A DNA stretch of 64,000 bases from IMG/VR virus record IMGVR_UViG_3300021091_000014, positions 92,638 through 156,637 of that record; one strand, written 5' to 3'. The stretch comes from a virus. Of this stretch, positions 2,215 through 10,991 are shown piece by piece. Position 1 is the stretch's first letter. Every line of letters begins with the position of its first letter. The notes below the pieces were generated by a model that saw nothing but the letters and a program-made list of their open reading frames with translations, was not told the origin of the DNA and searched no databases. Made by a program: the position numbers and the translations under genes.

Positions 2215-2415
2215 ATGGAAACTGAATTTATTAATGCTTTTATTGATAAGCAAAGAAAACTAATAGAAGAGTTAGTTTCAAAAAATCTACTAGCAGAGGC
2301 AAAGATCACTATCTTAGAAAAAAAGGTAGCTGATCTTTCCTCCCAGGTAGAATCTCTATCATCAAAATCCAATAAAAAAGAGAATGTGAAGCATGACGAA
2401 AATACTGGTGATTAA
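2215..2415 (+). CDS. Small coiled-coil protein, possible fibre assembly chaperone
   Basis: 66 aa, heptad pattern, AAGGA RBS, directly follows the fibre gene. Confidence 0.5.
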   Translation: METEFINAFIDKQRKLIEELVSKNLLAEAKITILEKKVADLSSQVESLSSKSNKKENVKHDENTGD

Positions 2416-4405
2416 TTTATCATCCAGACCTGATAGGCTTTCTTTTATGAATCAACAGCTTTCAGGTTTAGAGTGGGAGAGAATTGATGCTCTTAATGGA
2501 TATAATCTAGGACTTAATGATTTTAAATCTCTCGGGTTTACACCCTATAGCCAATGGACTGACCCACTTTTAGGTCGCAACCATACTAACACAGATATTG
2601 CTGCAATGATCTCCCATTACCGGGCATGGGAAAAATGTATCGAATATGACTGCCCGGTTTTAATTTTAGAAGATGATGCTGAAAAAATTAATAAATTAGA
2701 TTTAAATGAAATAGAAAATTTGCTTCAGACATATGATGTAGTGTATCTTGATCATAGAGAAATGGTAGAAGAAAAAACTCAGTATATTGATAAAAACTTT
2801 TTTAAGCCATACTACCCTTACTGGAATAGCGCATATGCTATTTCACCAGCAACAGCTAGAAAAATAGTAGAACTATCTAACTATAAAAATAATTTAATAC
2901 CTGTAGATGAATTTTTTCCTAGCTTGTTTCTTGTTGATTATAATGAATACTGCCTATCAAAAAATAAAAATGTAATTAATAATTTTAATAGTTTACAACG
3001 CATTTTTACCGAGCATTTTAGCTTATCACCAATAGCTTATAAGAATAAAGTATTTAAACAAAAACCACGCAGTGAGCTTGGTTCTGATATTGAAAGAGGT
3101 ATTTTAATGAACACAATTGAAAACTTGCACCTACTTACTGTTGCAACTGATATTACAAAACTAGGATACCTAAACAAGTCTGTTAATGAAATTGGAAATC
3201 AATTTGTTAATTTAGGACAAAATAAAATGTGGACCGGTGGTGACATGAGTAAGCCCGGCGGAGGAATGAAATTAAACCTGGTAAAAAATTATATTAAATT
3301 CCTGTCTGATAACGATATAATTTTATTTGTTGATGGATATGATGTCTTTATTAATGATGATAGGAATACTATACTTGAAAGATTTAAAGGATTTAATGTT
3401 GATGTACTTTTTGCAGCAGAAAAAAATTGCTGGCCCTCTAATGAATTAGAATCTTTCTTTCCAAAAAGCAACACTGAGTATAATTATTTAAACAGTGGTG
3501 TTTATATCGGATACGTTCATGCATTAAAGAAATTACTTGACCAAACTATTTCAGATAGTGAAGACGATCAGTTGTTTTTACAAAAACAATATTTAAAGCA
3601 AAAAATTCTTTCAACTGAAAGCCAAGTTAAAATAGCATTAGATCATGAAAATTATATTTTTCAATGTCTGGCTGGAGCTGAAAAAGAATTATCTATTAAA
3701 AAGAATAAACAGATACTAAACAATGCCACAAGATGCTGCCCATGTATTCTTCACGGGAACGGAGGCAGCAGCACAAAAGCAAAATTTGATAGTTTAGTGA
3801 ATGATATTTTAAACAATAATATTTTTATCACTAGAAAGACTTCAGTTGAAATGATTCATACAACTGAATTCAATGAAATTTCTCCCGGTTCAGATATTAT
3901 TGAAATGGATTTTATGACGCCAGAAAATTGTCAAAAGCTTATAGATCTAGCAGAACAAAATGGCAAATGGGAATCTATGTACGGTGATAAATTTCCAGGT
4001 CAAGAAATAAGGATTAGAGAATTTTCTATGGACTTCTGGAATGATTTAGAAGAACACTTTAAGAATACTATTAATCCTGTGATAGAAAAACACTGGTGGC
4101 CATTAATGATGTATGGTTTGAGAGATGCTTTTATTATTAAGTACGATCAAAAAACTCAATCTAATTTAAAATGCCATCACGATGCCTCTTTAGTTTCCGG
4201 GATGGTCAAATTAAACGATGGATACACAGGTGGTGAAACTTATTTTTACAGGCAGAATTTATCAAATATAAATACTTCAGTAGGAAAAATGATTCTATGG
4301 CCTGGGCAAGTTACCCATGGACACGAAGGTAGAACGGTACATACCGGCACCAAATACAATCTTGTTATTTGGACTTCACGACATAGAAACGATATTAATT
4401 ACTAA
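2393..4405 (+). CDS. Trifunctional collagen-modifying enzyme: GT25 (COLGALT-like) + PLOD/LH3-like glycosyltransferase + 2OG-Fe(II) lysyl hydroxylase
   Basis: aa1-236: VINLxxRxDR, SHYxAW, LILEDD, YWxxAYxIS, LIPVDEFFP, SDIE. aa239-475: LLTVAT, GGGMK, FVDGYDV, FAAEKNCWP, YLNSGVYIG, DDQLF, LDHENYIFQ, HGNG. aa490-670: FIIKY, HHDAS, HGHEG, GTKY (HxD...H facial triad). Confidence 0.88.
   Translation: MTKILVINLSSRPDRLSFMNQQLSGLEWERIDALNGYNLGLNDFKSLGFTPYSQWTDPLLGRNHTNTDIAAMISHYRAWEKCIEYDCPVLILEDDAEKINKLDLNEIENLLQTYDVVYLDHREMVEEKTQYIDKNFFKPYYPYWNSAYAISPATARKIVELSNYKNNLIPVDEFFPSLFLVDYNEYCLSKNKNVINNFNSLQRIFTEHFSLSPIAYKNKVFKQKPRSELGSDIERGILMNTIENLHLLTVATDITKLGYLNKSVNEIGNQFVNLGQNKMWTGGDMSKPGGGMKLNLVKNYIKFLSDNDIILFVDGYDVFINDDRNTILERFKGFNVDVLFAAEKNCWPSNELESFFPKSNTEYNYLNSGVYIGYVHALKKLLDQTISDSEDDQLFLQKQYLKQKILSTESQVKIALDHENYIFQCLAGAEKELSIKKNKQILNNATRCCPCILHGNGGSSTKAKFDSLVNDILNNNIFITRKTSVEMIHTTEFNEISPGSDIIEMDFMTPENCQKLIDLAEQNGKWESMYGDKFPGQEIRIREFSMDFWNDLEEHFKNTINPVIEKHWWPLMMYGLRDAFIIKYDQKTQSNLKCHHDASLVSGMVKLNDGYTGGETYFYRQNLSNINTSVGKMILWPGQVTHGHEGRTVHTGTKYNLVIWTSRHRNDINY
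4267..4274 (+). promoter_or_regulatory. T4-type late promoter inside the hydroxylase coding region, upstream of the collagen gene
   Basis: Exact TATAAATA about 160 nt upstream of ATG 4432. Confidence 0.5.
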
Positions 4406-10800: not shown

Positions 10801-10991
10801 TTGGTGATGCATGCTCAGGCATCGGATACATATCCTCTGCATCAAATAACATGTTAAGTAATACTACAGCTAATAATGTATATGATTTACTGGCTAATAC
10901 TGTTCATTACGATGGTGATTCTTCCGGAGGATATTATAGAGCAGCTAAAATAACTAATACTTCTAGCAACACCGTAATGCTCAGTTTTTAA
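7851..10991 (+). CDS. Second collagen-containing fibre/adhesin with IPT/TIG and Ig-like domains and a probable beta-propeller C-terminus
   Basis: Two short Gly-X-Y tracts, duplicated GGSNTQ(I/V)LFND...YDLGS module, GGxxxxINGxGF...[11 protein letters not shown] motif, LPSGLTLxxxGxLTGT Ig motif. Confidence 0.75.
8058..8706 (+). repeat. Exact 49-nt direct repeat, copies 600 nt apart (8058-8106, 8658-8706)
   Basis: tttaataaaacatcaaatacaattaccgttggtggtagcattctaccta occurs twice. Confidence 0.9.

Follow-up and report, generated by a model that had tools for sequence, protein, structure and literature searches.

Hydroxylysine (Hyl)-linked glucosyl-galactose (Glc-Gal) is considered a hallmark of collagen from animals. 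In humans, lysyl hydroxylase 3 (LH3, also PLOD3) and COLGALT1 (GLT25D1) form a complex (PDB 8zgc, 6fxr, 9evj, 9u7h) whose target motif is X-Lys-Gly, that is, Lys at the Y position of the G-X-Y collagen triplet. Outside animals, action in this pathway has, to our knowledge, been demonstrated only for enzymes of mimivirus, a giant virus of amoebae. There, the set of Lys-modifying activities for viral collagen-like proteins is spread over three genes: L230 (a lysyl hydroxylase and Hyl glucosyltransferase), R699 (a Gal-Hyl glucosyltransferase), and R655 (a putative GT25 glycosyltransferase). Here, we analyzed a window of 64,000 nucleotides that spans positions 92,638–156,637 of a 156.6-kb viral contig (IMG/VR record IMGVR_UViG_3300021091_000014; CheckV completeness 91%). 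The source virus is a T4-like myovirus. One of its genes, P0001, occupies window positions 2393–4405 on the + strand (stop codon at 4403–4405) as a single open frame of 670 aa, and lies immediately ahead of two collagen-repeat genes, P0002 and P0003. On the evidence of Pfam, PDB, and AlphaFold2 comparisons, P0001 encodes a three-domain protein, which we consider likely to be a cytoplasmic, single-chain collagen-lysine modification enzyme.

Like the human pair, P0001 holds all three catalytic domain types together with their key residues, namely the Fe triad of the lysyl hydroxylase (LH), the D112/D115/H253 Mn site, W145, and poly-Asp helix of the LH3 glycosyltransferase (GT) domain, and the E-D-D motif and D522 of COLGALT1. 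LH3 and COLGALT1 are, however, two proteins totaling ~1,360 aa, whereas P0001 is a single chain of 670 aa: its domains are ordered GT25, PLOD-type GT, and LH, without the accessory domain of LH3. Its setting would also differ, being the bacterial cytoplasm rather than the endoplasmic reticulum, with a phage fibre as the substrate. In contrast to the three separate mimiviral genes, the predicted activities of P0001 are fused and belong to a tailed bacteriophage.

An earlier reading of this locus, made from the sequence alone, had proposed that the frame at 2393–4405 joins a COLGALT-like domain, an LH3-like glucosyltransferase domain, and a PLOD-like hydroxylase domain; this architecture was confirmed by Pfam, PDB, and Foldseek comparisons. 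Domain 1 (residues 1–238, window 2393–3106) was assigned by Pfam and by HMMER alignment to COLGALT1, domain 2 (residues 240–475, 3110–3817), a PLOD/LH3-type GT-A glycosyltransferase, by PF25342, alignment to LH3, and Foldseek, and domain 3 (residues 495–670, 3875–4402), a lysyl-hydroxylase-type double-stranded beta-helix, by its matches to L230 and LH3 and by its Fe(II) triad. All three are encoded on the + strand. Every motif quoted in that reading was found in P0001: DPLLGR (residues 57–62), LEDD (92–95), YPYWNSAYAIS (141–151), LIPVDEFFP (168–176), and SDIE (231–234) in the first domain; TVAT (249–252), GGGMK (289–293), FVDGYDV (312–318), AEKNCWP (342–348), LNSG (366–369), DDQLF (391–395), and HGNG (454–457) in the second; and FIIKY (580–584), HHDAS (595–599), and HGHEG (642–646) in the third. 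In Pfam, Glyco_transf_25 (PF01755) matched residues 1–174 (1.3e-16, 61.5 bits against a cut-off of 24) and GT_PLOD (PF25342) matched residues 243–474 (1.4e-57, 195 bits against a cut-off of 27), while the match of 2OG-FeII_Oxy_3 to residues 583–661 (3.6e-5, 25.1 bits) fell just under its 27-bit cut-off. No NCBIfam model matched P0001.

A sequence search of the PDB with P0001 retrieved LH3 (2e-38, over both its GT and LH domains), R699 (1e-27), COLGALT1 (6e-15), and the L230 hydroxylase (2e-7). We then built a family profile from 33 full-length P0001 homologues (38–78% identity), and compared it to solved structures. The best matches were LH3 (7e-75), R699 (5e-54), COLGALT1 (5e-39, 137 bits), and L230 (3e-19), followed by mimivirus R655 (9e-15, 57 bits), the bacterial GT25 enzyme 8xlz (2e-11, 46 bits), PiuC (6e-3), and a Bacillus prolyl 4-hydroxylase (P4H; 0.19). 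The GT25 domain of this family is thus much nearer to animal COLGALT1 than to mimiviral R655. An AlphaFold2 model of P0001, computed from the 33-homologue alignment, had a mean predicted local distance difference test (pLDDT) score of 91, with residues 476–482 as the sole disordered linker. Superposition of the whole chain on LH3 by Foldseek was poor (template modeling (TM) score 0.31, root mean square deviation (rmsd) 18 Å); since the domain order differs between the two proteins, only the per-domain matches are meaningful, and in these the sequence identity to human LH3 or COLGALT1 was only 22–32%. Across all three domains, the catalytic residues were invariant or at least 90% conserved in the 33-sequence alignment or in a 20-sequence alignment of the N-terminal domain, with G36 as a consensus residue only.

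For the middle domain, identity as an LH3-like GT domain was borne out by the PF25342 match and by those to LH3 and R699. Foldseek superposed it on the GT domain of LH3 (6wfv) with a TM score of 0.87, an rmsd of 2.1 Å, and 32% identity, and on R699 with an rmsd of 2.0 Å. Seven positions and an Asp pair of LH3, W75, K89, D112, D115, W145, D190/D191, H253, and N255, were reportedly assigned by Scietti and colleagues in 2018 to the Mn site and to UDP-sugar binding. Their counterparts in P0001 are W280, K293, D314, D317, W347, D391/D392, H454, and N456. All of these are invariant in the 33 homologues except D391, which is at least 90% conserved. W92 of LH3 is not kept (Leu in P0001).

The C-terminal domain grouped with LH3 and L230 by profile and by fold, in keeping with its proposed identity as a PLOD-type hydroxylase. 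It was modeled as a beta-rich fold (pLDDT ~90), and Foldseek gave a TM score of 0.79 to L230 versus 0.57–0.63 to P4Hs. We also considered a generic prolyl hydroxylase and rejected it, as the family profile matched LH3 and L230 but scored Bacillus P4H at only 0.19, in agreement with the fold comparison. Residues H595, D597, and H644 align with the Fe(II) triad H667/D669/H719 of LH3; these three, together with H642 and K654, are invariant in the 33 homologues. Lysyl hydroxylases act on X-Lys-Gly and need a tail-to-tail dimer for activity.

The family of the N-terminal domain, Glyco_transf_25, also includes lipopolysaccharide (LPS)-type enzymes of bacteria. The latter (8xlz/8xc8) share the GT-A fold and PF01755 with P0001, but are stand-alone proteins of ~250 aa that act on lipo-oligosaccharide. 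In COLGALT1, L348, R351, R354, and G377 contact UDP, D436/D437 bind the ribose and Mn2+, and D522 is the catalytic base (PMC12987934). By HMMER alignment, these correspond to L9, R12, R15, G36, D94/D95, and D172 of P0001, of which L9, D94, D95, and D172 are invariant in the 33 homologues. For R12 and R15, conservation is at least 90% in that set, and neither residue varies in the 20-sequence alignment; G36 is conserved in the pairwise alignment. Aligned by hhalign to sea-cucumber COLGALT1, the domain scored 1.8e-33 at 30% identity, with the alignment stopping at residue 184. Foldseek matched it to COLGALT1 at 1e-14 (rmsd 3.1 Å over ~254 columns) versus 4e-7 (rmsd 10 Å) for 8xlz. When a profile of this domain was run against a library of 1.84 billion proteins, it gave 22,322 GT25 matches, 281 of them at E ≤ 1e-30. 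Among the best 150 of the 22,322, those that followed the metagenomic clade were ~600-aa proteins matched in their C-terminal halves, and the ones looked up were animal procollagen galactosyltransferases (from butterfly, from sea cucumber, and in a Joint Genome Institute (JGI) record named "collagen beta-1,O-galactosyltransferase"). The nearest named relatives of the domain are therefore animal COLGALT1 proteins, as the sequence-only reading had anticipated, and an LPS-type identity was rejected on the bit scores for COLGALT1 and 8xlz, with which the Foldseek and library ranks agree. P0001 starts directly with the GT25 domain at residue 1. Because the non-catalytic N-terminal GT lobe of COLGALT1 is missing, P0001 is COLGALT-like in its catalytic domain only, and is not a COLGALT orthologue.

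These results bear on the idea that P0001 is an auxiliary gene by which the phage modifies its host, its GTs altering LPS or other surface glycans (superinfection exclusion) and its oxygenase acting on something unrelated. The JGI names of relatives and the filing of PHROG 61 under auxiliary metabolic genes are in line with this idea, as is a study of pelagimyophages that read the glycosyltransferases of the fibre region, within a host-recognition cluster, as LPS modifiers (PMC7029224). The JGI names, however, derive from the title of the Pfam family only, and in the GT25 domain the resemblance to COLGALT is far stronger than that to a solved bacterial GT25 enzyme. A host-modifying role also leaves unexplained both the fusion to an LH-type hydroxylase and the partner collagen with Lys only at Y, which recurs across T4-like and non-T4-like phages (see below). 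We therefore consider such a role very unlikely.

We next turned to the collagens that accompany P0001 as a collagen-lysine modification enzyme. The presence of two collagen genes beside it, another point of the sequence-only reading, held: P0002 (1134 aa, 4432–7836, + strand) begins after an intergenic gap of 26 nt, and P0003 (1046 aa, 7851–10991, + strand) follows after a further 14 nt. Both are, by sequence, collagen triple-helix-repeat (PF01391) tail-fibre proteins, and they lie between baseplate and neck genes. P0002 (Collagen, 1.4e-78) also matched many tail-fibre PHROGs, and carries 185 G-X-Y triplets in 10 runs, with small globular segments between the runs. Y is Lys in 86 of these triplets and Thr in 58, X is Asp in 84, and Lys is absent from X. 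P0003 (Collagen, 2.4e-8) has two short collagen runs of 26 triplets, with eight Lys at Y, followed by TIG and He_PIG Ig-like domains; its long C-terminal region had no family match. Over the whole genome, we counted six collagen-repeat ORFs (open reading frames); their 440 triplets carry Lys at Y in 200 cases and at X in no case, and contain hardly any Pro. P0002 is predicted to be the main substrate of P0001.

Relatives of P0001 were found well beyond this genome. That related phages would have unannotated homologues had been expected, and full-length homologues were indeed present in the phage collection, from Synechococcus phages S-CAM9, S-PRM1, and S-8S53/55/56, a single-cell marine virus, and Roseobacter phage CRP-6, the last being an unrelated, non-T4-like phage of 45 kb. 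The proteins of S-CAM9 (AOV60406.1), S-PRM1 (YP_010097865.1), and CRP-6 (QBQ72782.1), all in PHROG 61, have the same three domains over 93–99% of the length at 36–38% identity. In these three loci, a G-X-K/T collagen tail-fibre gene lies 0.4–1.5 kb upstream of the enzyme. They differ from the P0001 locus in this upstream position and in partner collagens that are Pro-rich at X. A single small gene separates collagen and enzyme, except in S-CAM9 and S-PRM1, where the spacer consists of a small hypothetical gene plus two small 2-oxoglutarate (2OG) oxygenase genes. Scoring of 8,000 candidates from a large protein database gave at least 231 clusters of relatives, almost all of which share the three-domain architecture, and an alignment-based scan of IMG/VR found relatives encoded on 277 viral contigs; the scan needed an alignment as the query, as the single P0001 sequence returned no related loci. 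Megablast of the enzyme gene against 50,697 phage records gave no match, and relatives surfaced at the protein level only. In cellular genome assemblies, the full-length form was seen on a few contigs of metagenome-assembled genomes only, and those with flanking sequence have K-bearing collagens; partial homologues lie on the chromosomes of Streptomyces kronopolitis and Kaistia terrae.

The linkage to collagen was quantified in 83 loci, 59 of them with an upstream flank of 3 kb or more, counting as a collagen ORF any on the same strand with at least 15 triplets. Such an ORF lay within 3 kb in 52 of the 59 well-flanked loci and farther off in another two, so homologues mostly occur with collagen genes. 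The density of collagen ORFs was ~18 per 100 kb at 0–3 kb and ~2.6 at 3–10 kb, an approximately seven-fold drop. As a control, we took 80 viral loci, chosen arbitrarily among those with a GGN pattern of 12 triplets, which yielded 71 collagens; the enzyme was encoded at none of the 80. Median Lys content at Y was 25.5% in the enzyme-linked collagens versus 0.4% in the 71 controls (Mann-Whitney p = 6e-15; p = 3e-12 against GC-matched controls), although the enzyme-linked loci are phylogenetically related, so that these p-values overstate their independence. Lys at X averaged 0.000 in the enzyme-linked set versus 0.03 in the controls, and Lys outside the repeats was 3% in both sets. We rejected the possibility that Lys richness is a by-product of AT-rich DNA, given the GC-matched comparison, the absence of Lys from X, and the equal Lys content outside the repeats. 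The excess of Lys at Y in the enzyme-linked collagens indicates that the enzyme tracks Lys at Y before Gly, the feature that a lysyl hydroxylase needs.

Lys at Y could in principle serve electrostatic stabilization only, through K-G-D/E pairs in a Pro-poor helix, with the enzyme directed at another target or largely inactive and its linkage to collagen reflecting a shared tail-fibre module. K-G-D repeats do stabilize collagen without hydroxyproline. In this genome, Asp predominates at X and Lys at Y, which produces K-G-D repeats, and Pro is nearly absent; the enzyme is always part of a fibre module, a setting in which collagen repeats are frequent. Yet the arbitrary viral collagens are also fibre proteins and have next to no Lys at Y, the catalytic residues of the enzyme are strictly conserved, and partners of the S-CAM9 type are G-P-K/T, without the Asp pattern, and still have the enzyme nearby. 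Of the explanations that we weighed, this is the least probable, and we give it very little credence.

In the mechanism that we propose for P0001 as a collagen-lysine modification enzyme, the C-terminal 2OG/Fe(II) domain would hydroxylate the Y-position Lys of G-X-K-G in the phage's own, still-unfolded fibre chains. The COLGALT-like GT25 domain would then put a first hexose on the new 5-hydroxyl (by homology, Gal from UDP-Gal), and the PLOD-type GT domain would add a second one (by homology, Glc from UDP-Glc, as with LH3 and R699). Lastly, the chains would trimerise into fibres bearing many Glc-Gal-Hyl, or hexosyl-Hyl, groups. We infer catalysis, Hyl formation, the donor sugars and their order, the timing, and any benefit, be it a more stable fibre, shielding from proteases, or binding to receptors. 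In E. coli, a human collagen III fragment was hydroxylated on co-expression with the mimiviral prolyl and lysyl hydroxylases, and R699 could be produced in the same host in stable, soluble form, able to glucosylate Gal-Hyl (PMC9546862). Since these enzymes are active when made in E. coli, the bacterial cytoplasm is no bar to active enzymes of this pathway. The genome also encodes GalE, a UDP-glucose 4-epimerase (contig 49238–50203, outside the window; TIGR01179 equivalog, scoring 270 bits where the cut-off is 262.3). This GalE gene has a cytidylyltransferase-like and a GT4-like gene as neighbors, and its product could supply UDP-Gal. That one phage polypeptide of 670 residues suffices for the complete animal-type Glc-Gal-Hyl on collagen repeats inside a bacterial cell is a tentative proposal, with the balance tipped slightly against it.

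Several further points weigh against our reading. Five of the 59 well-flanked loci have no nearby collagen ORF, and the collagens of one sub-clade (L015–L027) have only 0–7% Lys at Y. R729, which in LH3 binds the C5 carboxylate of 2OG, is K654 in P0001, a departure from both LH3 and L230 that is invariant in the family. Lys fills the 2OG-binding role in other 2OG oxygenases, and K654 is chemically plausible in this role. GalE lies ~46 kb off among other sugar genes and may belong to another pathway. In COLGALT1, a lid loop (Y561–E580) with S569/D570/T571 closes over UDP, and a Thr571-to-Ala mutant is nearly dead (PMC12987934). P0001 has a G-S-D-I-E segment (S231/D232/I233, at least 90% conserved) after an A-Y motif, much as S-D-T-E comes after one in sea-cucumber COLGALT1, and the hhalign alignment does not reach it; going by the order of motifs only, the counterpart of Thr571 is probably Ile233. 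Moreover, GT25 enzymes differ in their donor sugar (8xlz is a beta-1,4-galactosyltransferase), and the GT of mimivirus L230 puts glucose directly on Hyl (PMC9546862).

The last three points also favor an alternative in which P0001 acts on the same substrate, the phage collagen fibres, by other chemistry: the PLOD-type GT would glucosylate Hyl directly, as L230 does, and the GT25 domain would add a different sugar, extend the glycan, or glycosylate Thr at Y. The product would then differ from animal Glc-Gal-Hyl. At Y in enzyme-linked collagens, Thr ranks second in frequency (27–37%), but it is just as frequent in the controls without the enzyme (28%), so it does not track the enzyme, and Thr at Y as an enzyme-specific target is unsupported. 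In addition, true Hyl-galactosyltransferases are the nearest proteins to the GT25 domain once the metagenomic clade is set aside, and the domain has retained the catalytic base and UDP-binding residues of these enzymes. We judge a different chemistry on the same fibres to be unlikely, if less so than the host-modifying and electrostatic explanations.

In databases, relatives of P0001 are labeled as hypothetical proteins or as 2OG-Fe(II) oxygenases, the latter also being the PHROGs label, and a full-text literature search turned up no account of such an enzyme from a phage. A general prediction that bacterial dioxygenases modify collagen-like proteins was made by Iyer et al., 2010. Collectively, the comparisons support the view that the set of enzymes for hydroxylation and glycosylation of collagen Lys known from animals and mimivirus is present in tailed phages in the form of a compact fusion of three domains. 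If so, collagen-lysine glycosylation would extend to viruses of bacteria, and many aquatic phages would carry heavily glycosylated tail fibres, with a bearing on host recognition, fibre stability, and protease resistance. P0001 would be a naturally occurring protein in which the catalytic domains that animals unite in the LH3-COLGALT1 complex are covalently joined. With hundreds of relatives in aquatic phages, the toolkit would circulate in the bacterial virosphere and share ancestry with the metazoan enzymes, which would inform the question of their origin in metazoans. Glycosylated collagen has not yet been made in bacteria, as human glycosyltransferases are hard to express there (PMC9546862); an enzyme evolved for the bacterial cytoplasm would be a candidate tool for producing glycosylated recombinant collagen in E. 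coli.

Promoter-like sites around the enzyme gene were inspected for hints of timing. A sigma-70-like consensus match (TTGACG-17-TATAAT, 11/12; 2168–2196, + strand) in the gap ahead of P0001 is a candidate early or middle promoter of the enzyme gene, although the total count of such matches in the region was not above that in shuffles. Between this site and P0001 lies a small ORF of 66 aa (2215–2415, + strand), which overlaps the P0001 start by 23 nt and may not be a gene. The T4 late-promoter consensus TATAAATA had seven matches in the window, a count not above chance, and all seven were on the + strand. One of them (4267–4274) lies inside the 3' end of the enzyme gene, ~160 nt ahead of the collagen ATG, and is a candidate late promoter for the fibre genes. 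The other copies are at 11003, 15216, 17295, 23631, 24645, and 47227, four of which are just upstream of structural genes: 11003 (ORF at 11032), 17295 (sheath, 17332), 23631 (scaffold, 23669), and 24645 (gp23, 24690). Production of the enzyme before, or independently of, the late fibre genes would fit these promoter matches.

Downstream of the enzyme and collagen genes, the window encodes a neck protein, gp15, the large terminase, tail sheath, portal, scaffold, and the major capsid protein gp23, as well as UvsW, a gp46/47-like nuclease, DNA polymerase B, UvsX, and a DnaB-like helicase. Its gp23 is 61–68% identical to the gp23 of Stenotrophomonas, Methylophilales, Pelagibacter, and Synechococcus myophages. 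Because near-identical DNA was present in many lake-water metagenome runs, we take the virus to be a freshwater phage; among the runs listed with such DNA, none was of RNA. A QueF-like nitrile reductase gene (38864–39796) was noted within a run of small genes (33450–42608).

Other observations concern the fibre genes. Upstream of the enzyme, P0004 (670 aa, 175–2187, + strand) encodes a non-collagen, fibre-like protein for which Pfam, NCBIfam, and PHROGs gave no match. P0004 and P0002 have in common a KRS...P..L..GEL(A) segment at the N-terminus (4432–4590 in the latter), and P0004 ends in LDGGTF. A globular insert that separates collagen runs of P0002 (residues 280–385, 5269–5586) shows a cupredoxin-like ligand pattern that includes G-H-P-F, with a very weak match to Pfam Copper-bind (E 0.18). 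Another collagen fibre gene (P0128), whose product has a C-terminal Peptidase_S74 chaperone, is located shortly before the start of the window. Between it and a fibre-assembly-like gene is a gene for a 2OG-Fe(II) oxygenase of 189 aa (contig 91606–92175, or window –1031 to –462; PF13640, 1.7e-14), with PKHD/PiuC-type proteins as the nearest solved structures; this oxygenase may provide a second hydroxylation activity on fibres. The two small 2OG oxygenase genes of S-CAM9 and S-PRM1 lie between the collagen gene and the fusion enzyme.

Lastly, we noted variant architectures among the relatives. A few phage contigs encode GT25 as a separate gene of ~230–245 aa, apart from the PLOD-type GT with or without LH (P0125/P0034 on a 71.7-kb contig and P0127/P0071 on a 41-kb contig); these are either split forms or frameshifts. 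Among metagenomic variants (P0170, P0172, P0176, P0078, and P0145), a form of ~900 aa combines GT25, GT_PLOD, an OGFOD2-like domain, and 2OG-FeII_Oxy, resembling GT25 fused to a full-length PLOD. Others include a protein of 942 aa with two GT25 matches, a fusion to an N-terminal methyltransferase, and a GT25 plus PLOD-type GT form with no hydroxylase match. A stand-alone LH-like domain, ~40% identical to P0001 over residues ~499–660, is widespread in Ilumatobacteraceae/Acidimicrobiia (L093–L164), where it has no collagen ORF nearby.

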